This document shows, piece after piece, positions 1,211-47,589 of a stretch of DNA of 64,000 nucleotides. The position numbers and the translations under genes are program-made. This DNA is from Patescibacteria group bacterium (GTDB lineage: Bacteria; Patescibacteriota; Patescibacteriia; Buchananbacterales; UBA6539). Each line of letters opens with the position of its first letter. Within the stretch, counting starts at the first letter, position 1. The notes under the pieces were generated by a model, which was not told the DNA's origin, did not search any database, and was given only the letters and a program-made list of their open reading frames with translations. Location of the stretch: assembly GCA_041662625.1 (NCBI GenBank), contig JBAZSB010000001.1:535189-599188 (forward strand), read 5' to 3'.

Positions 1211-1549
1211 TTATTTCTTTTCGGCTGAATCAGTTGCTTTCTTGCGCTCATCAGCAGCTTTAGTCGCTGCCGCCCGTTCTTGCTCTTTAGCCATTTTACC
1301 ACCATGAACAACAAATTTTCTCGTTGGCGAAAATTCACCTAAGCGATGGCCAACCATGTTTTCAACAATATTAACCACAATATGCTCTCGACCATTGTGG
1401 ACGCCAATAGTATAGCCAACCATTTCCGGCGTAATCATACAAGCCCGATCCCAGGTTTTAACTACTGTTTTATCACCTGGTTTGATATTTTTTAATTTCG
1501 CCAGTAATCTTTCATTAATGTACGGACCTTTTTTTAAACTTCTTGACAT
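1211..1549 (-). CDS. rpsS: 30S ribosomal protein S19
   Basis: MSRSLKKGPYINERLL...TIGVHNGREHIVVNIVENMVGHRLGEFSPTRKF is the S19 signature. Confidence 0.95.
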   Translation of the reverse strand: MSRSLKKGPYINERLLAKLKNIKPGDKTVVKTWDRACMITPEMVGYTIGVHNGREHIVVNIVENMVGHRLGEFSPTRKFVVHGGKMAKEQERAAATKAADERKKATDSAEKK

Positions 1550-1565
1550 AATATTTAAGTTTTAA

Positions 1566-2411
1566 TTATTTCTTTCTTTTACTACGCCGACGGTTAACAA
1601 TAAATTTATTAGAATATTTATTTTTCTTACGGGTTTTTACTCCTAAAGCTTTTTTACCCCAGGGAGTTTTTGGCGCTTTCATCCCAATCGGATTATGACC
1701 TTCACCACCGCCGTGAGGATGATCAACTGGATTCATAACTTTACCGCGAACCGTTGGCCTAATTCCCATGTGTCTTTTCCGACCAGCCTTACCAATCCTT
1801 AAATGCATGGCATCAGGGTTAGAAACTTGACCCAAAGTCGCTAAAGATTTTTTAGAAATCAATCGGATCTCCGAAGAAGGCATTTTAATTGTCGCATATT
1901 CACCTTCAACTGCCATTAGCTTAGCCACTGAACCAGCAGTCCGAACTAACTGGGCTCCCCGGCCAGGACTAATTTCAATATTGTAAATTAATGAACCTAA
2001 AGGCAAATGTTCTAAAGGCATTCGATTGCCTGGTTTAATCTCAGTGCGTTTAGTTGAAGAAATAACCTGATCCCCAACTTTTAAATCAACCGGGGCAATA
2101 ATATAACACTTATGGCCATCTTGATATTTTAATAAAGCGATTCTAGCTCTGCGGTTTGGGTCATATTCAATCGCTTCTACAGTGGAAGGCATATCATACT
2201 TATTCTGCTTATAATCAATTAAACGGTAAAATCTCTTAGCTCCCCCGCCCCGATGGCGGACAGTAATTTTGCCACTGGCATTCCGGCCACCAGTCTTACG
2301 TTTAATCATAACTAATTTCTTCTCGGGTCTTTTAAGAGTGATATCAGAAAAAGTATCAACCGATGTCTGTCGGCGACCAGGAGTAGTTGGTTTGTAAATT
2401 CTTATTGGCAT
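1566..2411 (-). CDS. rplB: 50S ribosomal protein L2
   Basis: 281 aa with [14 protein letters not shown]...[23 protein letters not shown], classic L2 motifs. Confidence 0.95.
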
Positions 2412-2444
2412 GTTAACTGTTAAATGTTAATGGCTAACTATTAT

Positions 2445-2927
2445 TTAGACTCCTTCATAAACTTCAATCTTATCGCCGGCTTTGAGGGTAACTATTGCTT
2501 TCTTCCAACTCTTTGTTTTACCTTGAATTCGGCCATAACGGACATTTTTTCCGGAAAGATTAGAAATATTAACTTTAATTGGTTCAACGTTATAAATCGT
2601 CCGAATTGCTTTTTTAACTTCAACTTTATTCATTTTTGGGTTGATGGCAAAAATATATTTATTTAAGGGTCCTAAATCACTGGCTTTTTCCGTAATCAAA
2701 GGTTTAACCAAAACTCGATAGGCCAAAGTTGTTTTGCCTTTGAGCTCACCGGTCTTAGGTTCTAGTTTTTTAGTTTCTTTCAATGCCGACACTTCTGCTT
2801 TAGCTTTTGGTTCAACAACTTTTTTCTCTTCTTTCTTAATCTTTTCGTCCTTAACGACCGCTCCACTTGAACTCGGTTTTTTGGTCTCTTCTTTATTTAC
2901 TTTTTTAAATTTATCAAAAATTCCCAT
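2445..2927 (-). CDS. rplW: 50S ribosomal protein L23 (Lys-rich N-terminal extension)
   Basis: C-terminal LAYRVLVKPLITEKAS...KAIVTLKAGDKIEVYEG is L23. Operon position matches. Confidence 0.85.
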   Translation of the reverse strand: MGIFDKFKKVNKEETKKPSSSGAVVKDEKIKKEEKKVVEPKAKAEVSALKETKKLEPKTGELKGKTTLAYRVLVKPLITEKASDLGPLNKYIFAINPKMNKVEVKKAIRTIYNVEPIKVNISNLSGKNVRYGRIQGKTKSWKKAIVTLKAGDKIEVYEGV

Positions 2928-2933
2928 ATTATT

Positions 2934-3686
2934 TTATCCTTTGGCGCCCAAGCGAGCCTGGCTAGCAGCGGAAACAAAAGTTTTTTCAATCTCGGCTAAG
3001 GAATCAAGGGGCATTAATAAATATTGCTGTTGCAAAACGGCTAAAACATTTAAACTATTTGCCTGGATGGTAACAAGCCGAGGAATATTGCGAGCTGCTC
3101 TTTGGACTTTTTCATCTTTTTTTGGCAAGACTAACAAAATACCTTTTTCTCTGGATTTCTTGGTCTTCTCTGATTTTTCTATCTTCTTGCTGGTAACCTT
3201 TTCTTCTTTTTTAACGGTTTTTTTGGCTTTAGCTTCTCTCAATTTCAAATTTTGTAAAATCTTAAAAAACTTCTTGGTTTTAGCTTCTTCTAATTCCAAT
3301 TTATCTAACAAAATTATTTTTTGATTATTAGCTTTATCGGATAAACTCATCAAAATCGCTTTACGCTTGGCCTTTTTATTAATTTTTAAGGAATAATTCT
3401 GATCCTTGGTTGGACCAAAGGTAATTCCCCCACCCCGCCATAAAGGTGAACGGATTGAACCATGACGAGCCCGCCCGGTTCCTTTCTGACGCCAAGGTTT
3501 GCGACCACCACCGCGGATTTCACCCCGGCCTTTGGTGTGAGCTAAGTTCTGTCTTTGATTGGCTTGCTGGCTAACAACGGCCTGCTGGATTAATTCTGGC
3601 TTAATTTCTAAACCAAAAACTTTTGGATTCAAATCCACTTCTTTGACTTTTTCTCCTGTTTGATTGTAAACCGTTGCTTTAGCCAT
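2934..3686 (-). CDS. rplD: 50S ribosomal protein L4 (C-terminal Lys-rich extension)
   Basis: MAKATVYNQTGEKVKEVDLNPKVFGLEIKPELIQQAVV...GTGRARHGSIRSPLWRGGGITFGP is the L4 signature. Confidence 0.9.
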   Translation of the reverse strand: MAKATVYNQTGEKVKEVDLNPKVFGLEIKPELIQQAVVSQQANQRQNLAHTKGRGEIRGGGRKPWRQKGTGRARHGSIRSPLWRGGGITFGPTKDQNYSLKINKKAKRKAILMSLSDKANNQKIILLDKLELEEAKTKKFFKILQNLKLREAKAKKTVKKEEKVTSKKIEKSEKTKKSREKGILLVLPKKDEKVQRAARNIPRLVTIQANSLNVLAVLQQQYLLMPLDSLAEIEKTFVSAASQARLGAKG

Positions 3687-6481: not shown

Positions 6482-6865
6482 TTAGTCAATGGGTTCAAAA
6501 TAGTAATTCTGCTCTTCTTCACCCTCTTCCGGCTGATTTTTAGCTCGATTGAGCAAATTTTTATCAAAGTTTAAAGGTGAATTACTGCTAGGATTTTTGT
6601 CTTCTTTAACTTTACTTTTAATCGTCGGCCAATTATCCAAATTTTCTGCCTCCTGATTAATTTTCCAAATCGCAATATCACGATTAATTTTTTCTAGCAG
6701 CTCATCCTCACTTAAACCGACCAATTCTGACTTACCCAAAACCAAATTTTGATAATTTTTAAAAGTGACAATAACATGAGAGGGCTCTCCACTTTCATCC
6801 AAAACAATACAGTTATCTCCTGTCCGATTTATCAAATCGATAATTTTTTTGAAATTTTGAGGCAT
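6482..6865 (-). CDS. Hypothetical protein (127 aa, acidic C-terminus) inserted between fusA and tuf
   Basis: Clean ORF. No recognisable motif. Confidence 0.5.
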   Translation of the reverse strand: MPQNFKKIIDLINRTGDNCIVLDESGEPSHVIVTFKNYQNLVLGKSELVGLSEDELLEKINRDIAIWKINQEAENLDNWPTIKSKVKEDKNPSSNSPLNFDKNLLNRAKNQPEEGEEEQNYYFEPID

Positions 6866-6886
6866 AAGTTTTACCTTGCAACTTTA

Positions 6887-6980
6887 CCCCGACACCAAAA
6901 CTTATTTGTTTATTTTAAAATTTGGTTCAGTGCTACCAGGAGTCAGGGAAAAACTCTACTACCATTTTTTGGTGTTGGGG
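6887..6980. repeat. MITE-like long hairpin element E1 (14-bp clamp CCCCGACACCAAAA / TTTTGGTGTTGGGG)
   Basis: Perfect or near-perfect 14-bp inverted termini enclose ~66 nt. The loop shares gtttattttaa..cagtg with element E2 at 11709-11819. Confidence 0.5.
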
Positions 6981-11176: not shown

Positions 11177-11680
11177 CTAAATATTTTTAAATACTATTTG
11201 ATTACCACAAAAATCCAGGAATTTTTTTAGGTCTTCGGTTTTAATAACTAAAGTAGCCGTATTGTCATTGGGATGAAAACCGATTTCTTCAGATCCAAAA
11301 AAATCCTGATCAACAATGACCGTGATGTTTTTTTCTTCATTATTAATCAAGCCAAAAACTGAAACTGATCCAGGGGTTAAACCTAAATACTTTTTTAAAT
11401 CTTCAGGTGAGGCAAAGCTTAATTTATCTTCGCCTAATTCTTTTGTCAACTGATTGAGATTAACTCTTTTGTCTGCCAAGACCGTAACGAGATAATAGGC
11501 AGTTTTTTTCTTGTTTCTCAAAAATAAATTTTTAGAGTGAGCACCGGGAATATCCAAATGTAAACTTTCTGATTCTTCAACCGTAAAAACTGCTGGGTGG
11601 TTGTATTTATGATACTTAATATTCAGCTGATCTAAAATTAGATAGATATCTTTCATAAAGATGTTTTGGCAGGCACGCAT
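11177..11680 (-). CDS. YbaK/ProX-family aminoacyl-tRNA deacylase
   Basis: DIPGAHSKNLFL...LGLTPGSVSVFGL matches the YbaK/ProX editing-domain family. The true start is probably an internal Met (MKDIYLIL). Confidence 0.7.
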   Translation of the reverse strand: MRACQNIFMKDIYLILDQLNIKYHKYNHPAVFTVEESESLHLDIPGAHSKNLFLRNKKKTAYYLVTVLADKRVNLNQLTKELGEDKLSFASPEDLKKYLGLTPGSVSVFGLINNEEKNITVIVDQDFFGSEEIGFHPNDNTATLVIKTEDLKKFLDFCGNQIVFKNI

Positions 11681-11848: not shown

Positions 11849-11924
11849 GTCGGGCTGGGGAGACTCGAACTCCCGGCCTCATGCACCCCATGCATGCGCG
11901 CTACCAACTACGCCACAGCCCGAC
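11849..11924 (-). tRNA. tRNA-Pro (anticodon GGG)
   Basis: Minus-strand read GTCGGGC TG..GTAGTTGGTAGCGC..CATGC ATGGGGT GCATG AGGCC GGGAG TTCGAGT CTCCC CAGCCCGAC. It has a 7-bp acceptor, a T-arm with GTTCGAG, and a 7-nt anticodon loop with U33 and G37. CCA is not encoded. Flanking sequence extends the acceptor pairing. Confidence 0.85.
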
Positions 11925-12484: not shown

Positions 12485-13519
12485 TTAGATGGTCCGGCCA
12501 ATAGCGATAGCCACGGCACGGACCTTGATCATTAGTTCAGCAAACTGCTGCGGATATAGCGACTGAGCGCCATCGCAAAGAGCTGAATCTGGATCAGGAT
12601 GAACTTCAATTAGTAATCCATCTGCGCCGACTGCTACTGCTCCCAAAGCGATGTCGGGTACAAGCTCGCGCTTGCCAGAAGGATGTGATGGGTCAAAGAT
12701 AACGGGGTGATGAGTCAACTTTTTGACGACCGGAATCGCGTCGAGATCGGCGTTGAAACGGGTGTAACCGTTATCAATGCCCCGGACACCACGAGCACAT
12801 AGGATTACTCGCGGGTTGCCAGAAGCAACGATGTACTCAGCGGCTAGTAGCCACTCATTAATGGTTGCAGCCATTCCCCGCTTCAGGATCACTGGCTTAT
12901 TGGTTCGACCAACAGCTTCCAACAAGGGGTAGTTTCCCATGTTGGCTGTACCAATCTGCAAGACATCAGCATATTGGGCGACCAACTCCACTAGCTCCGG
13001 CGAAATCACCTCCGTAACCGTGGCTAACCCCACTTGCCGTTTAGCCTGCTGTAATAGCCGCAGGCCTTCTTCGCCTAGACCTTGAAAGGCGAAAATTGAC
13101 TTACGTGGTTTGTAAGCACCTCCACGCAGCAGTCGAGCGCCGGCGGCCTTAACCGCTTCAGCACAACTAATCAGCTGCTGTTCGGATTCAACAGCACACG
13201 GTCCGGCTATCACCACCAGTGGCTCTGCACTGCCGATAGACACTCCGTTGAGGCGAACAGCGAAATCCTCTGGATGGGCCTGGCGAGCAGTCAAACGAAA
13301 CTGGGTAGTGGCAATCACCACATCAATGACGAAAGGCAGGCCACGGAAGAATTCCTGGAGCGCCAACTTGCGCTCATAATCCACCGCTCCGATGCAGTTA
13401 ATAACGATGATCTCTTTACCGCACGAGACCAACGTCTGCTCGAAACCGGCTTGTCTCGCCTCACTTTGGATTTTCCCGATCTGTTCTTTCGAACAGTCAC
13501 CTTTGATCTGAACAAACAT
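12485..13519 (-). CDS. 3-deoxy-7-phosphoheptulonate (DAHP) synthase, type Ibeta with N-terminal ACT/ferredoxin-like regulatory domain
   Basis: VVIAGPCAVESEQQ and LLRGGAYKPRKS are the KDO8PS-like DAHPS core. The start is taken as ATG 13519 (MFVQIKGD), which is preceded by GGAGG. GC-rich cassette. Confidence 0.8.
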   Translation of the reverse strand: MFVQIKGDCSKEQIGKIQSEARQAGFEQTLVSCGKEIIVINCIGAVDYERKLALQEFFRGLPFVIDVVIATTQFRLTARQAHPEDFAVRLNGVSIGSAEPLVVIAGPCAVESEQQLISCAEAVKAAGARLLRGGAYKPRKSIFAFQGLGEEGLRLLQQAKRQVGLATVTEVISPELVELVAQYADVLQIGTANMGNYPLLEAVGRTNKPVILKRGMAATINEWLLAAEYIVASGNPRVILCARGVRGIDNGYTRFNADLDAIPVVKKLTHHPVIFDPSHPSGKRELVPDIALGAVAVGADGLLIEVHPDPDSALCDGAQSLYPQQFAELMIKVRAVAIAIGRTI

Positions 13520-14360
13520 GATTGACCTCCTCTGCTTTAGGGTAAGAACCAACCACTACGACATCACTCACGAACCGTTCTTTGAGCTGCATAACCGCAG
13601 CGGCAAAGACCGGGTCACTCTCATGGCCATCAACATCAATCCAAAAGTAGCATTCTCCTAACGCCCGCTTGGTTGTATAGGAAGTAATGCGACTCAAGTT
13701 GAGGCCCTGATAGTAGAACACACCAAGAGCATGATACAGCGCCCCCGGTTCGTTCCTCGTAGAGAAGAAGAGAGTGGTCTTACTTTTACCATTGGCTGTT
13801 GTCCTGGGTCCTCCCAAGACAATAAAACGTGTCACGTTGTGTTGTGAATCGCCGATGTCAGCAGCCAGCACCTTAAGGCCAAATTGCTCAGCAGCCTGCT
13901 CGGAACTAATCGCCGCAACCATAGCCGATTCAGCCTGCGAGACCAACTCAGCAGCAAGCGCAGTGCTAGCCACTGGTGACTGTTTCCAACCACGGCCTCG
14001 CAAAAACTCCGAGCACTGAGCTAACCCCTGCGGATGCGACAAGACTTCGGTTACTGCCGACAATTCCGTTTGGGGTTTTGCTAAAAGCATCTGGCGAATT
14101 GGAATCAGTACTTCTTGGGTAATCCGCAGACCAGGCGTTGTCCAAACCCTGGCCATGAGAAAGTCGATGGTATCACGAACAACATCGCCCAAGACATTTT
14201 CCAACGGAACAATCGCCCGATCAATGCGGCCTTGAGTAAAGGCTTCGAGCAAATCAGGAATTGAATCAAACCCAACCAGCTCAAATTGGCCACGACCCCA
14301 GACGATTGCCGCTTGAGCGGAAAACGTTCCTAGCGGTCCTAGGTATCCTAACTTCAACAT
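13497..14360 (-). CDS. pheA: Prephenate dehydratase (PDT + ACT domains)
   Basis: LKLGYLGPLGTFS...TRF...TTKRALGECYFWIDVDGH is the PDT catalytic region plus a C-terminal ACT domain. The start is taken at the Met preceded by GGAAAGGAGA. Confidence 0.85.
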   Translation of the reverse strand: MLKLGYLGPLGTFSAQAAIVWGRGQFELVGFDSIPDLLEAFTQGRIDRAIVPLENVLGDVVRDTIDFLMARVWTTPGLRITQEVLIPIRQMLLAKPQTELSAVTEVLSHPQGLAQCSEFLRGRGWKQSPVASTALAAELVSQAESAMVAAISSEQAAEQFGLKVLAADIGDSQHNVTRFIVLGGPRTTANGKSKTTLFFSTRNEPGALYHALGVFYYQGLNLSRITSYTTKRALGECYFWIDVDGHESDPVFAAAVMQLKERFVSDVVVVGSYPKAEEVNHVCSDQR

Positions 14361-14388
14361 ACCCTGATGTCTCCTTTCCTCACTAGGG

Positions 14389-14847
14389 TTAATTGCCAAG
14401 ACCAGCTACCCGACCCAATACAAGCTCCAACAATCCCCGCCAACGACTGGGTTGTGACTCAATCTGGCGATCTGGTCTTCCATCTGGGAAAGTTGCTGCT
14501 GACGACGTCTGGCTTAAGCTAACGTTTGTCGCCTGAGGGCGGCTCTTCATGTCCGCAGCCAATCTCTCATAGATGTCACCGTAGACATCTTTCCACTTTG
14601 CATCAGCCGGTACCAGACCGCGCTCTTCGGCCAAAACCAGGATGGTTGGTTTGCTCAGATCACCCAGACAAATCAAGCCATTGGCCGCATCGTTGCCATC
14701 GCAACTATGGCACTGGTAGTACCGTGAAAGCTGAGCGATCAGATCATCCCGCGACCCGAAATCCAAACCGCAAGATCCGGCTTCAGCCTGCAGTGCCGCC
14801 GAGCTGAGCTGATTAAATCTCACTTGAACGCTCCATATACTCATATC
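14389..14847 (-). CDS. Hypothetical protein (152 aa), first gene of the Phe-attenuated operon
   Basis: GC-rich ORF with a strong SD (AAGGAAGGAGAG) before ATG 14847. No recognisable motif, and it is not an AroQ or AroH chorismate mutase. Confidence 0.5.
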   Translation of the reverse strand, partial: DMSIWSVQVRFNQLSSAALQAEAGSCGLDFGSRDDLIAQLSRYYQCHSCDGNDAANGLICLGDLSKPTILVLAEERGLVPADAKWKDVYGDIYERLAADMKSRPQATNVSLSQTSSAATFPDGRPDRQIESQPSRWRGLLELVLGRVAGLGN

Positions 14848-14976: not shown

Positions 14977-15013
14977 ATAAACAAAAAAACTGACCATTCA
15001 GTAGTAGATCAGT
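14977..15013 (-). terminator. Attenuator terminator of the Phe leader (ACUGAUC-loop-GGUCAGU + U7)
   Basis: Minus-strand hairpin followed by UUUUUUUGUUUAUUG. The leader segment ACUGACC at 15075-15081 can pair with the terminator 3' arm as an antiterminator. Confidence 0.55.
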
Positions 15014-15069: not shown

Positions 15070-15129
15070 CTACCGGTCAGTATAAAAGAAAAAGCTGAAA
15101 AACCATTTTACGGCTTGTGTCTTTTGCAT
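15070..15129 (-). CDS. Phe-rich leader peptide MQKTQAVKWFFSFFFYTDR (19 aa)
   Basis: The ATG lies ~5-9 nt after the predicted TSS, so the transcript is near-leaderless. There are 5 Phe, 1 Trp and 1 Tyr in a 9-codon run. It sits directly upstream of the terminator and the pheA-DAHPS operon. Confidence 0.6.
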   Translation of the reverse strand: MQKTQAVKWFFSFFFYTDR

Positions 15130-16742: not shown

Positions 16743-17515
16743 GCCTTACGATAACTACGTAACTGATCAAGACCGGAAGCACTCTCGTCTCGAATAATCC
16801 GACCCGTTAAAACTAAAAAAGCGTCTTCCAAAGATTCTTTATTAGTTCTTTGTTTTAATTCATTTGGACTGCCTAAAGCAATAATTTTTCCGTGATCGAT
16901 AATTGCCACTTTTTTTGCGGCCCGGTCGGCTTCTTCCATGTAGTGAGTGGTAAAAAATACCGTCATCCCCTCTTTTTGGTTCAAATCTTTAATATAATTC
17001 CAAATATGATTTCGCGTCTGCGGATCCAAACCCAAAGTTGGCTCGTCTAAAAATAAAATTTGCGGATGATGAATCAAGCCCCGGGCAATTTCCAGCCGCC
17101 GCTTCATCCCACCGGAAAATTTCTTGACCAGTTCATCTTTGCGGTCCCAAAGCTCGACAAATTTCAGCATTTCTTCAATCCGCTGCCGGCGAATCTTTTT
17201 AGCCACGCCGTATAAGACCCCGTGAAATTCCATATTCTCCCAAGTGGTTAACTCATCATCTAAACTGGGATCCTGAAAAACAATACCAAAAGAATGGCGC
17301 ACTGCATCCTGGTCAGTTGAAGGATTATGGCCGTTAACCAAAATTTTTCCGCTGGTTGGCAAAAGCAAAGTGGTCAGCATTTTAATTGTTGTGGTTTTGC
17401 CCGCACCGTTAGGTCCCAAAAAAGCAAAAATATCTCCTTTAGCGACACTAAATGAGATATTATCAACTGCCGTAAAATCACCAAATTTTTTAGTTAAACT
17501 ATCTACCTTAATCAT
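16730..17515 (-). CDS. ABC transporter ATP-binding protein
   Basis: Walker A GPNGAGKTTT, signature LSGGMKRRLEIA and Walker B LFLDEPTLGLD. Confidence 0.9.
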   Translation of the reverse strand: MIKVDSLTKKFGDFTAVDNISFSVAKGDIFAFLGPNGAGKTTTIKMLTTLLLPTSGKILVNGHNPSTDQDAVRHSFGIVFQDPSLDDELTTWENMEFHGVLYGVAKKIRRQRIEEMLKFVELWDRKDELVKKFSGGMKRRLEIARGLIHHPQILFLDEPTLGLDPQTRNHIWNYIKDLNQKEGMTVFFTTHYMEEADRAAKKVAIIDHGKIIALGSPNELKQRTNKESLEDAFLVLTGRIIRDESASGLDQLRSYRKAWGR

Positions 17516-17627
17516 AAAAAATTAAATCACTCATACATTATAAACTCTTTTAGCCCCAAAGAAAAGGCCCCAAGTCAACGCGGACCTGGGGCAAAAAAGG
17601 ACAAACTAGCGTAAGCTAGAAATTTTC

Positions 17628-17781
17628 TGGTCGGGGTGGCAGGATTTGAACCTGCGTCATCGCTTATGCGACTGCTCTTCCTCCTTACGGAGCCTTATCC
17701 TCTATTCCCCAAGCTTATTTGATGATCGGGACCATCTTAGCCAGAGTGGGTACTAATTGGCATCGGCTGAGCTACACCCCG
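17628..17781 (-). ncRNA. tRNA-like RNA element (154 nt): canonical acceptor stem, T-arm and encoded CCA, but no D or anticodon arms
   Basis: The 5' end CGGGGUGUAGCUCAGCC pairs perfectly with the 3' end GCAGGUUCAAAUCCUGC CACCCCG A CCA. The middle is ~95 nt of structured insert (CUCC-GUAA-GGAG and GUCGC-AUAA-GCGAU tetraloop hairpins). Terminator hairpins plus U-runs follow on the minus strand. Confidence 0.45.
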
Positions 17782-17984
17782 TAAATAACATTTAACCAAC
17801 AACAGTTAACAATTAACTGATAAAATAAAAGAGCCCAGGAAGTTGGGCTGTTAAATGTTAACTGTCAATTGTTTTTAGCTAATGATAAACCCAACTTCCC
17901 TAAGGCAAGGTTGGGGGGACGGGCTGAGTTGAACTGAAACGTTTAATCATAGAATTATCTTACTACTACTTAAAAATTTTGTCA

Positions 17985-18020
17985 AAGAAAAAGGACCGGG
18001 TCGCACAAACACGGTCCTAC
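17985..18020 (-). terminator. Intrinsic terminator after the 167-aa gene (AGGACCG..CGGTCCT + U-run)
   Basis: 7-bp GC stem followed by UUUUUCUUUG on the minus strand. Confidence 0.5.
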
Positions 18021-18057
18021 AAGACAATCGACTGGGTGATTAAGATGTTACGACATC

Positions 18058-18561
18058 CTAGATGGTAACATTAAGCAGGTTTGTCTTACTTCTCCCACTC
18101 ATATCGATTACGCCGGTGGGTGGAATTACTCCTTTCACCAGCGATAGCTGGGAATCCCCGTGGCGGGGAGATACCACAACCGACAACAGAATGGGTTGTC
18201 CACCTACAATGAACGATACTTCGGGAATTACGAAGCATTGATCTGCGGTGACCAAATCTCTGAGTTGCCGGCTGCCGGCTTCACTGGCTGCTTGCGCCTG
18301 CTGGGCGGAAATCACCCTAAAGTAAATCAATGCTGCGCCAACCCGCGGGTTGACCCAAACGCAATGCTCGCCAGCATTGCCGTTGCAGTCGGCCAAGGCT
18401 CGGCAAATCCAGGCCATAGCAGCATCCACATCGGTCCGGTTAATGATTTCCGGACTGCAGGCAGTACTGATCTTAGCCTGATCATAACCTTGACCTGTCA
18501 GATGCCGGTCAAAAAACCAAACATCTCGTCCGTTTCCTTCGACTTTCAGTTGTACTGGCAT
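18058..18561 (-). CDS. Hypothetical protein (167 aa), under the Leu-rich leader
   Basis: GC-rich ORF with a very strong SD (GGAAGGAGG) 7 nt before ATG 18561. No recognisable motif. Confidence 0.55.
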   Translation of the reverse strand: MPVQLKVEGNGRDVWFFDRHLTGQGYDQAKISTACSPEIINRTDVDAAMAWICRALADCNGNAGEHCVWVNPRVGAALIYFRVISAQQAQAASEAGSRQLRDLVTADQCFVIPEVSFIVGGQPILLSVVVSPRHGDSQLSLVKGVIPPTGVIDMSGRSKTNLLNVTI

Positions 18562-19929: not shown

Positions 19930-19962
19930 AATAAACAAAAAACTAGTCCTTTGACAGACTAG
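19930..19962 (-). terminator. Attenuator terminator of the Val leader (CUAGUC-loop-GACUAG + UUUUUUGUUUAUU)
   Basis: The 3' tail UUUUUUGUUUAUU(A/G)CC is shared with the Phe attenuator terminator. The leader codons GUA CUA GUC can compete for GACUAG. Confidence 0.5.
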
Positions 19963-19993
19963 GTGGTTCCAGTTCTAATTTTGGAAATCCAAA

Positions 19994-20059
19994 CTACCCA
20001 GTCTGCGAGACTAGTACGACGACGGTCAAAACGACAGTTGTCCGGGCAATAGATTTCAT
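19994..20059 (-). CDS. Val-rich leader peptide MKSIARTTVVLTVVVLVSQTG (21 aa)
   Basis: 6 Val in a 9-codon run. The MKS.A+ N-terminus and SQ.G C-terminus parallel the Leu and Ile leaders. Near-leaderless. Confidence 0.55.
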   Translation of the reverse strand: MKSIARTTVVLTVVVLVSQTG

Positions 20060-20178: not shown

Positions 20179-21945
20179 CTAACGGCGATGACAGTGCAGA
20201 AAGTACTGATAGCCGGCCGCTAATGCTCGGGCCGAAGCTTCGGTTACTGACTCGGAGACAGCAACTGTTCCCCAAATTTCATCACCATTATTCTTGATGC
20301 GCCAGAACAGTATTACCCGAACCCGGGCAGCTGTTCCGTCATGGTTAATCAACGCTTTCACGTTGTAGTTAACCAATTCAAGGCCTACCAGCTCGGGGAA
20401 AACCGGTTCACGCGACCGGCCACCGCGTTCCTGCAGTGCCTGACGCAGAGCTTTGTCCAAGGCGTTGACCAAGCCATCACCTTTGGCCGTCTTCAGACCG
20501 ATAGTCCGGCCATCAGCCAACTCGACTTGAACCGTTGCCTTGGGACTGCCCAGCATCAAATTCTGAAGCTGCCGATCAAGAGTTTCACCGGGCAAGCCGG
20601 TGTAGGGCGGAATCCTCTCAGTCAACTCGCACATCGTCACAGTGAAAAACGGCTGCAATCGGTCTAGCTGGCGCAAGGCCAAAAGTCGAAAACTACCCTC
20701 AGCCGTTTCAAACAGCCAACCATCCCTTTCCAAGCCGTGAACCTTATCAAGCAGCTCGCCAATTCGCGGATCGCTTGGTGCCAAGTTTCTGATAAACTCA
20801 GCTAATCGAACGCGCATCAAGGTTCGGCCGGCTTGATTGGATAGGCCAAGGCTGGTCTGGTTGCCAACCATTGCCGCCCGGATGTGCTCAACTGAATCAG
20901 GATCTTTCAGCCAAGCGTGACTGTGGGTTCCACCTTCGTGATGGAAGGCATTGGGTCCGGCCACCGGCAGGTTGAACGGAATTTCAATTCCCGCCAGATT
21001 GTAGACGTAGCGGGTCAGAGCCGTCCAAAGGGTAAGTTGCTTGGCGGTTACTACGGCAATGCCCATCTTAAGGACCAGACTGGGGATGATCGTGGTCAGG
21101 TTAGCATTGCCAGTCCGCTCACCGATACCACCAATCGTTCCTTGGACATGATCGCAACCGAGTTCAACTGCCAAAAGCGAATTGGCATCGCCCATGCCGG
21201 AATCATTATGGGTATGAACACCCCATTCGACTCCCTGATCCTTTAACCAAGGCACGACGTCGAGCAGAAAAGCAAGCCATTCTGCCGGCAAGGTCCCGCC
21301 GCGGGTGTCACATAGAACTATCCGGCGAGCCCCACCATTGATTGCAGCTGACAAAGTCTTGAAGAAGTATCTTCGGTCGTCTCGCCAGCCGTCAACCGCA
21401 TGCTCGGCATCATAAATGACGGTTTTGCCAACCGATACCAGCGCCGCTACCGTTTCTTCGATTATCCGCAGATTTTCTGCCAGCCGGATTTCCAAAACCC
21501 TTTGGACGTGAAGCTTCCAGCTCTTGCCGAAAACCACCACGTGACTTACGCCAGTATCCAAGACCGACTTGATCATCGGATTGGTGATAAGAATTCGCTC
21601 ACCAGGTTTGTTCGGCTTGACCGTTCCCATAAAAGCGTAAAAAGTCACGCCAAGCTGATGGTACCGCTTTCTTTGAGCGAGAAGCTGACGAAAGACCTCC
21701 GGGTTGACTTTGTCACTCGGCACTGGCCAGCCAACCTCAATATGGCGCAAGCCGGCTCTAACCGCCTGGCTAATCACACTCATCTTGTCCTCGGCCGTCC
21801 AAGTCAGACTCCGAGTCTGACCACCGTCACGACAAGTAGTGCAGAGCAGATCGACTTTCTTTGGTCGACCAAGCAATTTCAGCAACTTAGGCTCAGTCGC
21901 CAATCTCGCTATTACGTCAGCTAGTGACTTCTGAACTAACTGCAT
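20179..21945 (-). CDS. 2-isopropylmalate synthase / (R)-citramalate synthase family enzyme (HMGL-like TIM barrel + C-terminal LeuA-dimer regulatory domain)
   Basis: Contains RDGGQ, HTHNDSGMGDANSLLAVELGCDHVQGTIGGIGERTGNANL, and a long C-terminal regulatory region. The start is taken at the Met preceded by AAGGAGG (MQLVQKSL). The Ile-rich leader suggests citramalate synthase (isoleucine pathway), but this is inference. Confidence 0.8.
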   Translation of the reverse strand: MQLVQKSLADVIARLATEPKLLKLLGRPKKVDLLCTTCRDGGQTRSLTWTAEDKMSVISQAVRAGLRHIEVGWPVPSDKVNPEVFRQLLAQRKRYHQLGVTFYAFMGTVKPNKPGERILITNPMIKSVLDTGVSHVVVFGKSWKLHVQRVLEIRLAENLRIIEETVAALVSVGKTVIYDAEHAVDGWRDDRRYFFKTLSAAINGGARRIVLCDTRGGTLPAEWLAFLLDVVPWLKDQGVEWGVHTHNDSGMGDANSLLAVELGCDHVQGTIGGIGERTGNANLTTIIPSLVLKMGIAVVTAKQLTLWTALTRYVYNLAGIEIPFNLPVAGPNAFHHEGGTHSHAWLKDPDSVEHIRAAMVGNQTSLGLSNQAGRTLMRVRLAEFIRNLAPSDPRIGELLDKVHGLERDGWLFETAEGSFRLLALRQLDRLQPFFTVTMCELTERIPPYTGLPGETLDRQLQNLMLGSPKATVQVELADGRTIGLKTAKGDGLVNALDKALRQALQERGGRSREPVFPELVGLELVNYNVKALINHDGTAARVRVILFWRIKNNGDEIWGTVAVSESVTEASARALAAGYQYFLHCHRR

Positions 21946-22045
21946 ATCAGTATCCTCCTTCCGTTTGTCACGAATTATAACTCCAGTTGATGTCAAGGTT
22001 CCAACTCCCTCCATGACTTACAAAGACAATCTAAGTAAGACAATC

Positions 22046-47322: not shown

Positions 47323-47525
47323 AAAATCTCCCGCCTCGAGGGGGAGTGGTTACTTCATTCGTTCTCTTAGAAAACGAAAGGTCACCGACTCTTGATCTCG
47401 AAGAGTTTAGTGATTTAATAGAGCCATAATTTTCTCGACCTGGCTTACCCCGATTTTATATTGGGGATTACAGTTGCGGATCAGCGGAGGATTCACACCT
47501 CGCTTCGGAAAATTAAAGCTGTTTG
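47323..47525 (-). promoter_or_regulatory. Cobalamin (B12) riboswitch with intrinsic-terminator expression platform
   Basis: Minus-strand RNA contains GGUGUGAAUCC-UCC-GCUGAU-CCGCAACUGUAAUCCCC ... GGGGUAAGCCAGG. This matches the GGUG.AA.UCC...CCGC.ACUGUAA core and the AGYCAGG B12 box. The terminator CUCCCCCUCGAGGCGGGAG plus U6 ends ~10 nt before the start codon. Confidence 0.7.
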
Positions 47526-47589
47526 TCAAAGTATTATCATTGTAGATTGTCTAATTTTCAGTGTCAAGTAAATTTTGTGGATAACTTAA

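Follow-up and report, generated by a model that had tools for sequence, protein, structure and literature searches.

A conserved tRNA-Pro-like RNA without an anticodon loop lies behind a predicted proline leader-peptide attenuator in Patescibacteria

Two described systems are closest in concept to the element reported here. One is tRNAOther of Bacillus cereus, a pseudo-tRNA recruited to regulation, which is iron-regulated via Fur and forms part of longer transcripts (PMC3399842). The other is rnTrpL of Sinorhizobium, an attenuator-derived trans-acting small RNA, in which the terminated leader is released when the amino acid is plentiful and acts by base pairing (PMC6614838). We analyzed a 64,000-nt stretch from a Patescibacteria group bacterium (assembly GCA_041662625.1, contig JBAZSB010000001.1, positions 535,189 to 599,188; hereafter the window), in which an initial annotation had proposed a tRNA-like RNA at 17628-17781. 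The element was confirmed, with the RNA on the minus strand. Like tRNAOther, it is tRNA-derived and non-translational, lies at a boundary used by mobile DNA, is environmentally controlled (here by prediction) and is a putative regulatory RNA element, whereas it differs in standing under a proline attenuator, in being bounded by terminators and in its far more canonical tRNA body. As with rnTrpL, a ribosome-dependent attenuator would give a small RNA acting beyond its own operon, the trans action being predicted in the present case; unlike rnTrpL, the present RNA would be the read-through product under shortage, and it is tRNA-shaped. In these cells, proline shortage appears to be met by production of a tRNA mimic. 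The RNA of the window is composed of the following parts.

17628-17781, minus strand: tRNA-Pro-like RNA without an anticodon loop, 154 nt (sequence, fold and covariation over nine copies)
17781-17775 / 17638-17632, minus strand: acceptor stem, 7/7 Watson-Crick pairs
17772-17769 / 17677-17674, minus strand: D stem GCUC/GAGC, intact
17678-17768, minus strand: D-loop AGCC...GGAA, 91 nt, including an insert of ~82 nt with its own hairpins (fold)
17659-17672, minus strand: hairpin GUCGC-AUAA-GCGAU at the anticodon-arm position, 5 bp, 4-nt loop
17639-17655, minus strand: T arm GCAGG-UUCAAAU-CCUGC (sequence and fold)
17631, minus strand: A73
17630-17628, minus strand: encoded CCA

Read from 5' to 3', the order is CGGGGUG-UA-GCUC-[AGCC...91-nt D-loop...GGAA]-GAGC-A-GUCGC-AUAA-GCGAU-GAC-GCAGG-UUCAAAU-CCUGC-CACCCCG-A-CCA. 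The tRNA-like ends noted initially, CGGGGUG-UA-GCUC-AGCC and GCAGG-UUCAAAU-CCUGC-CACCCCG-A-CCA with seven of seven acceptor pairs and an encoded CCA, were thus found as described. The 7-bp acceptor stem, D stem, T arm and conserved T-loop of a tRNA cloverleaf are all present, and the minimum free energy (MFE) fold of the 154-nt RNA is cloverleaf-like (-52.7 kcal/mol, z = -2.7 against shuffles). The middle had been thought to replace both the D and the anticodon arm. This holds for the anticodon arm, at whose position a 5-bp hairpin with a 4-nt loop is found, but not for the D arm, which is expanded with its stem intact. Likewise, only one of the tetraloops described as GNRA-like is of that type, namely GUAA in CUCC-GUAA-GGAG, one hairpin of the D-loop insert in the fold; AUAA and CCCG are not GNRA. 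An anticodon arm with a 5-bp stem and a 7-nt loop carrying U33 and the anticodon was not found, the loop of the window copy being the 4-nt AUAA, and the variable region after the replacement hairpin is 3 nt. As there is no anticodon, the RNA cannot decode.

C1-G72 together with A73 is a signature of tRNA-Pro, and in BLAST the 3' half of the window RNA was closest to annotated tRNA-Pro genes. The present RNA shares with bacterial tRNA-Pro (RF00005) C1-G72, A73, CCA, the D stem GCUC/GAGC, the D-loop ends AGCC...GG(U/A)A and the T arm GCAGG-UUCAAAU-CCUGC. It differs from tRNA-Pro in having no 7-nt anticodon loop or anticodon, a variable region of just 3-5 nt and a D-loop insert of up to ~85 nt, and the window copy is uncalled by ARAGORN and below the Rfam gathering score.

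The initial annotation had fitted neither a transfer-messenger RNA (tmRNA) nor a group I intron to the element, and the searches gave the same picture. ARAGORN called no tRNA and no tmRNA on the window element, and no Rfam family, RF00005 included, attained its gathering threshold on it. In E-value mode, the tmRNA model aligned only the two ends, namely acceptor stem and T arm, with 17.2 bits against a gathering score of 47 (500-nt search, E = 5e-5); group I, group II and other intron families gave no Rfam match up to E = 10. Like the tRNA-like domain of tmRNA (RF00023), the RNA has ends that make up acceptor stem and T arm with CCA, lacks an anticodon and carries other structure in the middle. 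On the other hand, position 3:70 is G-C (G-G in two copies) and not G3-U70, no tag open reading frame (ORF) or pseudoknot was seen, a true D stem is present, and the copies have 74-159 nt as against ~360 nt, so tmRNA was rejected. A Y RNA had also been suggested, and it gave no Rfam match for the window element. The Ro-binding stem of YrlA is built from its 5' and 3' ends, and a loop caps the acceptor-like stem (PMC4201824). The present RNA shares with it the non-coding mimicry of tRNA D and T arms and elbow, but a Y RNA does not fit because the ends here form an acceptor stem with free ACCA rather than a Ro-binding stem; no Ro/Rsr context was seen.

Several other candidates were tried on the window sequence and rejected. 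A repeat or miniature inverted-repeat transposable element insertion was rejected as the D-loop insert is unique within the window, and a plasmid or phage origin as BLAST there matched no more than the final 30-47 nt, corresponding to generic 3' halves of tRNAs, in most cases tRNA-Pro. A cyanobacterial origin, suggested by base composition, was also rejected: the flanking ABC ATPase and prephenate dehydratase show 100% identity to proteins from a Patescibacteria metagenome-assembled genome, and Candidatus Buchananbacteria are the closest relatives that bear a name. A small ORF within the RNA (AUG GUC CCG AUC AUC AAA UAA) and another starting inside the T-arm region are not conserved in the related contig L002.

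The comparison with orthologous loci carried the analysis further. Copies were obtained from contigs encoding orthologues of the neighbouring genes, together with one metagenome pattern scan. Eight further copies were found at the same genomic position in seven related Patescibacteria contigs (L002, L007, L155 with a tandem pair, L158, L163, L164 and L166), with stems kept by compensatory changes. The nine-copy set, which stands behind eight leaders, thus comprises the window, L002, L007, L155a, L155b, L158, L163, L164 and L166. Copy lengths range from 74 to 159 nt, and the D-loops measure 8, 9, 10, 34, 38, 54, 54, 91 and 94 nt; AGCC and GGUA/GGAA, typical of D-loop ends, are retained, and the insert varies from 0 to ~90 nt, L007, L155a and L155b being insert-free. 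At a median pairwise identity of 56%, the acceptor, D and T stems hold 141 canonical pairs out of 144, as against 39-43% in a control with the partner strand shifted, and compensatory changes add 11 extra pair types. T-stem position 2 shows four canonical pair types across the copies and position 3 shows two, whereas C1-G72, G7-C66 and A73-CCA are invariant. Judged from these alignments, the RNA structure is under selection.

A hairpin replaces the anticodon arm in all nine attenuator-linked copies (3-9 bp, loop 3-5 nt, no conserved sequence; GUCGC-UUGG-GCGAU in L166), and none of the nine has a 7-nt anticodon loop. ARAGORN gave no call or nonsense anticodons on the copies, and among the copies other than that of the window only L155b reached the RF00005 gathering score, with 52 bits. 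Two further ideas did not survive the comparison. A Shine-Dalgarno-like GGAGG as functional core was rejected, since the tract has no fixed place in the window, L002, L007 and L113, and it is absent or degenerate in L155, L158 and L163. Recognition by EF-P through a 9-nt D-loop was rejected as the D-loops span 8 to 94 nt.

The copies also bear on whether a working tRNA-Pro gene is split here by an intron or insert, with splicing restoring a decoder. The initial annotation had considered a tRNA interrupted in the D-loop, and the place of the insert is as it supposed. Patescibacteria tRNA genes often carry group I introns which are missed by standard tools; these lie in the anticodon loop at position 35/36, are self-splicing and restore a normal tRNA (PMC13011429). 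The present gene is from the same phylum, is likewise missed by annotation tools owing to extra sequence, and in the window copy holds a ~82-nt insert. However, the insert is in the D-loop, is far below the length of a group I intron, matches no group I or II model even at E = 10 and is missing in some orthologues, and its removal restores nothing, since the anticodon position still has a 4-nt loop afterwards. L007, L155a and L155b, which are insert-free, have neither a 7-nt loop nor an NGG anticodon. Anticodon loss is therefore not due to the insert, and no excision of the insert can restore a decoder, so the intron-split tRNA was ruled out as a candidate, and we give the idea next to no weight.

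The element was further placed in its transcription context, for which the features are as follows.

17957-17985, minus strand: sigma-70-type promoter TTGACA-17 nt-TAAGAT for the leader and tRNA-like transcript
17900-17950, minus strand: leader ORF MIKRFSSTQPVPPTLP with stop codon, 16 codons, with proline sensor codons
17887-17900, minus strand: region 2, GGGAAGUUGGGUUU, which pairs with the leader ORF (region 1) or with the terminator 5' strand (antiterminator)
17822-17849, minus strand: attenuator terminator AGCCCAACUUCCUGGGCU with U tract (terminator scan)
17558-17619, minus strand: two tandem intrinsic terminators, hairpins with U tracts at 17619-17606 and 17592-17567

The promoter is the sole promoter-like site on the minus strand in 17300-18100, and none other was found between the attenuator terminator and the tRNA-like gene of the window. 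An alignment of three syntenic loci revealed that the block ahead of the gene is conserved. The leaders of ten loci were compared, eight with the tRNA-like RNA plus L153 and L161. A TTGACA-type -35 and an A/T-rich -10 hexamer stand upstream of the leader ORF in the seven loci compared for the promoter; in six of these the ATG lies 6 nt past the -10 hexamer, and likewise in L163 and L166, so that the leader mRNA is probably leaderless. All ten loci have a leader ORF of 14-20 codons with an invariant PVPP, whose codons differ at third positions only (in the six loci found without the PVPP pattern).

Region 2, GGGAAGUUGGG, is the segment directly past the leader stop codon. As the MAFFT leader alignment is out of register in the terminator for some rows, duplex energies were computed per sequence. 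The duplex of regions 2 and 3 had -19.6 kcal/mol in the window, with 1 of 300 shuffles as good, and -15 to -20 kcal/mol across the ten loci (0-1 of 300 shuffles as stable). The attenuator terminator is also kept by compensatory changes, e.g. AGCCUG/CAGGCU in L155. In constrained folds, masking nt 1-48, as with a ribosome stalled at PVPP, gave the antiterminator in nine of the ten loci, and masking region 2, as with a ribosome at the stop codon, gave the terminator in all ten. From the end of the U tract to the tRNA-like gene, the spacer is ~7-20 nt in L002, L007, L155, L158, L163 and L166, ~30 nt in L164 and 41 nt in the window. By these computational criteria, the upstream block 17985-17822 is a trp-type proline attenuator. 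No Rfam leader family matched the proline leader, and no T-box-like pairing of the ACCA end with the leader was seen, neither UGGU nor a complementary motif being found by eye.

A proline-codon leader, mgtP, is known in the Salmonella mgtCBR operon (PMC3641672). In common with mgtP and the trpL, hisL and pheL attenuators, the present leader combines a short ORF, enriched in codons for the sensed amino acid, with three regions of alternative pairing and an intrinsic terminator, and as in the classical systems a biosynthetic gene for the sensed amino acid is controlled, here the proB-like gene of two sister genomes. It differs from them in that the output in the window is a non-coding tRNA-like RNA and not an enzyme, the leader ORF is apparently leaderless and the host belongs to Patescibacteria.

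In eight of the ten leaders, at least one of the last three sense codons encodes Pro; seven of these end Pro-stop. Pro-stop is known to stall termination. This would suit a ribosome-rescue or ribosome-binding RNA, i.e. a minimal tmRNA-like or E/P/A-site tRNA body that releases or parks ribosomes stalled on proline codons, and so would the predicted induction by stalling at Pro codons, the fact that tmRNA is the sole Rfam model touching the RNA (acceptor and T arm) and the purine-rich GGAGG-like tract of several copies. However, the 17-bit score stands far from the 47 of the gathering cut-off, no G3-U70 pair, resume codon, tag ORF or pseudoknot was found, the RNA has a true D stem that tmRNA is missing, and the GGAGG tract is conserved neither in position nor in sequence. 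We consider a rescue function quite improbable.

The sister genomes L153 and L161 show what else this switch can control. Both share this promoter, leader and terminator, behind which come a Shine-Dalgarno sequence and an amino-acid kinase of 250-277 aa, whose best family is TIGR01027 proB (glutamate 5-kinase; E = 1e-52, 179 bits vs a cut-off of 186); the two kinases are 57% identical to each other. The attenuator is thereby found before a gene for the supply of the same amino acid that its leader would sense. L161 and L158 have identical leader peptides, their ORFs being 1 nt apart, and BLAST between them gave 86% identity across the Pro-leader block and again from the promoter of the aromatic leader onward. 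Between these two blocks lies proB in L161 (~780 nt) and the tRNA-like gene with its terminators in L158 (156 nt). It follows from this comparison that the tRNA-like RNA and a proline-biosynthesis-type enzyme are alternative cargoes of one proline switch.

The shared slot may be read in other ways as well. If proB was lost or replaced, the RNA could be a functionless, decaying tRNA-Pro pseudogene or attachment-site relic behind an orphaned attenuator. The initial annotation had raised the related idea of an attachment-site relic of an adjacent GC-rich island, of which a weak echo was found. In L006, at 1339-3000, a phage-type integrase gene stands where the tRNA-like gene would otherwise lie, upstream of the orthologous ABC transporter, adjoined by two 3' fragments of tRNA-like sequence, GGTTCGAATCCTACCGCCGCGACA and ATCACCCCGACCA, which suggests that mobile elements use the tRNA-like gene as attachment site. 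Decay would also agree with the destroyed anticodon arm, with inserts ranging from 0 to ~90 nt and with proB filling the same slot in sister genomes. Moreover, a genome-wide scan with GAGCA-N18-23-GGTTCRAATCC-N9-GACCA gave mostly tRNA-Pro 3' fragments, i.e. typical att repeats, and four Patescibacteria candidates only. Against a relic stand the 141 of 144 canonical stem pairs with compensatory changes at 56% median identity, the stem-loop at the replacement hairpin in every copy, the invariant C1-G72, A73 and CCA where pseudogene decay would hit all arms, and the tandem duplicate in L155. The 3' end is not repeated anywhere in the window, and the neighbours in the GC-rich stretches are conserved, syntenic biosynthetic genes. 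We regard a functionless relic as unlikely.

The proB slot, together with the intact acceptor end, the encoded CCA and the kept L-shape elements, would also suit an amino-acid carrier for a non-ribosomal reaction, charged by an anticodon-blind synthetase for a transferase or biosynthetic enzyme and possibly replacing the ProB step. Non-proteinogenic tRNAs occur in other bacteria. However, no partner enzyme is conserved beside the tRNA-like gene, the neighbours varying among loci. An upstream 167-aa ORF (18058-18561), examined as a partner protein, had no Pfam or NCBIfam match and is not conserved beside the leader in L155 and L158. Known prolyl-tRNA synthetase (ProRS) enzymes require G35 and G36, and we know of no chemistry that makes proline on a tRNA. 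A carrier role therefore seems highly improbable to us.

At its 3' end the transcript is closed by the tandem terminators, two hairpins with U tracts as initially described, ahead of the promoter of the ABC transporter operon. A small hairpin with U tract followed by a strong hairpin with U tract is also present in L002, L007, L158, L163 and L166, with different stem sequences. In eight loci the downstream operon has its own promoter and nothing there needs processing. These results bear on whether the element is a cis-acting processing or insulation module, in which an RNase P/RNase Z cleavage site trims or ends the read-through transcript and the released RNA has no role. Such a module would be like mascRNA-type 3'-end formation or operon-embedded tRNAs, and would agree with the tandem terminators downstream and with two tRNA-like genes of L164, tRNA-Val-like and tRNA-Thr-like, which lie between leader attenuators (Val-rich and Phe-rich) and ORFs; tRNAOther, too, is thought to be a tRNA-like part of a larger RNA (PMC3399842). 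But the next operon has its own promoter in these eight loci, the terminators by themselves would insulate, and a cleavage signal needs neither tRNA-Pro identity (C1-G72, A73) nor an encoded CCA nor a stable replacement hairpin. A pure processing module is rather unlikely in our view.

We favour the initially listed option of a tRNA-like regulatory or tRNA-scaffolded RNA, by way of the proline leader-peptide attenuator immediately upstream. In this reading the RNA is a non-decoding mimic of tRNA-Pro, induced by proline starvation and acting in trans, and we consider the statement as a whole about equally likely to be right or wrong. What comes directly from the computation is the structure with its conservation, the missing anticodon loop, the attenuator architecture and the proB-like link in sister genomes. 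The RNA is tRNA-Pro-derived, non-decoding and conserved, and the attenuator is predicted to control it; this regulation and the conservation of the tRNA-like RNA are both well supported. Expression, processing, non-chargeability and a trans-acting target of the RNA are predicted further steps.

The proposed mechanism would run in one transcription unit, comprising the promoter, the leaderless 16-codon ORF MIKRFSSTQPVPPTLP, the terminator/antiterminator switch, the tRNA-like RNA and two terminators. When prolyl-tRNA-Pro is plentiful, the ribosome would reach the stop codon and cover region 2, the terminator would form and little tRNA-like RNA would be made. When prolyl-tRNA-Pro is short, the ribosome would stall on PVPP, leaving region 2 to pair with the terminator 5' strand and allowing read-through into the tRNA-like gene. 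RNase P would presumably cleave the read-through transcript at C1, with trimming down to the encoded CCA. The predicted product is a stable RNA of L shape; it keeps from tRNA-Pro the acceptor stem, discriminator base, D stem and T arm, bearing a plain hairpin for the anticodon arm and, in the window genome, an extra D-loop domain. Owing to the need of known ProRS enzymes for G35 and G36, it would not be efficiently charged. Such a permanently uncharged mimic of tRNA-Pro could serve as a decoy or signal for a factor reading the acceptor end or elbow of tRNA-Pro, candidates being ProRS, a trans-editing or turnover enzyme or an uncharged-tRNA sensor, and a cis-acting proline sensor would thereby become a diffusible starvation signal. 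A mimic acting in trans is the most coherent reading, since loss of the anticodon removes decoding and charging, while the kept acceptor, elbow and CCA preserve recognition.

Several observations weigh against this reading. The analysis turned up neither a binding partner nor a target site nor any conserved loop motif, and the insert and replacement hairpin vary freely; we therefore regard the specific trans-acting role as tentative only, and this also limits our confidence in the whole statement. A G3-G70 mismatch occurs in two copies and A2-C71 in one, and one replacement hairpin has just 3 bp. The unconstrained MFE fold of the window already favours the antiterminator, and L161 retains the terminator when the leader ORF is masked, so the thermodynamic picture is not uniform. 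Four of the ten leaders were found by a pattern requiring PVPP codons, which leaves six independent witnesses for the motif. The start of the leader at the transcription start follows from promoter geometry only, and the slot swap with proB may reflect gene loss and not functional equivalence.

Leader-peptide attenuators are textbook switches of enzymes, and here one appears to switch on a structured RNA imitating the very tRNA that it monitors for charging. Provided that the RNA is expressed and works in trans, attenuators would gain a new class of output, tRNA mimicry would gain a new use, in starvation signalling or in the quality control of prolyl-tRNA, and a layer of regulation would emerge in Patescibacteria, whose reduced genomes are considered regulator-poor. 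The searched literature yielded no paper connecting a tRNA-like RNA with an attenuator, nor one on such RNAs in Patescibacteria. A bolder version, about which we are doubtful, is an "RNA alarmone": a never-charged look-alike of tRNA-Pro, made on stalling at proline codons, would signal in trans to readers of uncharged tRNA-Pro. We are as doubtful about the readers that it might reach (ProRS, editing or turnover enzymes, T-box-like or other sensors) and about its being the attenuator output in genomes without a proB-like gene at this position. If true, it would be amino-acid starvation signalling that relies neither on (p)ppGpp nor on the charging state of real tRNAs. Since the genes are invisible to tRNA finders and Rfam, annotation would gain from a covariance model made with the nine copies.

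The proline leader is not the only one in this neighbourhood. A Val-rich leader ORF, MKSIARTTVVLTVVVLVSQTG with stop codon, lies at 19994-20059 (minus strand) with a promoter and a terminator at 19936-19963, and precedes small ORFs (94, 109, 58 and 167 aa) without a family match. It has the appearance of an attenuator for branched-chain amino acids, and the arrangement recurs in L163, L164 and L166. A Phe-rich leader ORF, MQKTQAVKWFFSFFFYTDR with stop codon, lies at 15070-15129 (minus strand) with a promoter and a terminator at 14982-15013, and precedes a 164-aa ORF together with the genes for prephenate dehydratase and DAHP synthase. It resembles an attenuator for aromatic amino acids and is kept in L155, L158, L161, L163 and L164; a weak Rfam Phe_leader match (E = 0.035) was obtained at 7061-7183 of L161. 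Leu-rich leader ORFs, e.g. MKFSAKKALLLGLLLLLQPQGGKFTSV with stop codon, stand with terminators before isopropylmalate synthase genes in L004 (3096-3512), L164 (4047-4130) and L166 (~1230-1310).

This row of attenuators in the window and its relatives (Val, Pro and Phe, with Leu in relatives) precedes first-step feedback-type enzymes, namely a citramalate/isopropylmalate synthase-like protein, the proB-like kinase, prephenate dehydratase and DAHP synthase. So dense a classical attenuator array (Val, Leu, Pro, Phe) before first-step enzymes is unexpected for organisms regarded as auxotrophic symbionts. The GC-rich stretches of the window, 12485-14399 and 20179-22014, have ~50% GC vs ~38%, and their genes, for DAHP synthase, prephenate dehydratase and the citramalate/isopropylmalate synthase-like protein, are conserved and syntenic. 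The biosynthetic genes there are for first-step, allosteric-type enzymes only, each behind an attenuator, which is unusual in Patescibacteria. A normal tRNA-Pro(GGG) without encoded CCA is located at 11849-11922 (minus strand) and ends the same gene cluster in L004, L155, L158, L163 and L164. As this tRNA closes the cluster, the cluster is bracketed by a tRNA-Pro-like gene and a real tRNA-Pro.

Other odd tRNA-like genes were seen among the compared sequences. L164 has at 2656-2748 (plus strand) a 93-nt tRNA-Val-like gene with acceptor GGGGCCG, A73, CCA and a D-loop insert, which ARAGORN did not call. Its UAC arm has a loop of 4 nt (7-bp stem), or of 6 or 8 nt depending on the closing pairs, and not 7. 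The gene follows a Val-rich leader, MKTARQNLVLANVVVLVI with stop codon, and a terminator, and precedes ORFs; this case hints that the pairing of an attenuator with a cognate tRNA-like RNA may reach beyond proline. At ~6773-6933 (plus strand), the same contig has a tRNA-Thr(UGU)-like gene with G1-C72, C2-G71, U73 and CCA, again with no ARAGORN call, which carries a structured insert of ~85-95 nt after CUUGU in the anticodon loop and sits between the terminator of the Phe-rich leader and the prephenate dehydratase gene.

Further candidate genes of the tRNA-Pro type with C1-G72, A73, CCA and 15-nt anticodon arms were present in Gracilibacteria and Paceibacterota contigs (L113 2287-2360, L086 6685-6862 and L119). 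L113 has its own consensus promoter and no leader, and in L086 a neighbouring tRNA has an 8-nt loop. In L121 of Candidatus Kaiserbacteria, a tRNA-like gene of ~225 nt at 3395-3618 (minus strand) has the ends CGGGGUGUAGCUCAG...CCACCCCGACCA, matching those of the window element. It is placed between the 23S and 5S rRNA genes and is flanked by a long complementary stem. Its interior holds stretches that appear to match 16S rRNA, namely the 530 loop GCAGCCGCGGTAAT and the region ~1170 GAGACTGCCG...GGAGGAAGG. In many IMG/VR viral contigs (e.g. L013 ~11300-11390, L051, L029, L034, L038 and L077), tRNA-like genes have acceptor, D and T arms and CCA intact, while short or odd loops replace the anticodon loop, one recurrent class having the loop CCAGGAGGUA. 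Some of these viral genes are in phage tRNA clusters beside tRNAs with D-loop inserts.

Elsewhere in the window, an AdoCbl (cobalamin) riboswitch aptamer, RF01482, was found at 47379-47534 (minus strand), with 52.5 bits vs a gathering score of 50.

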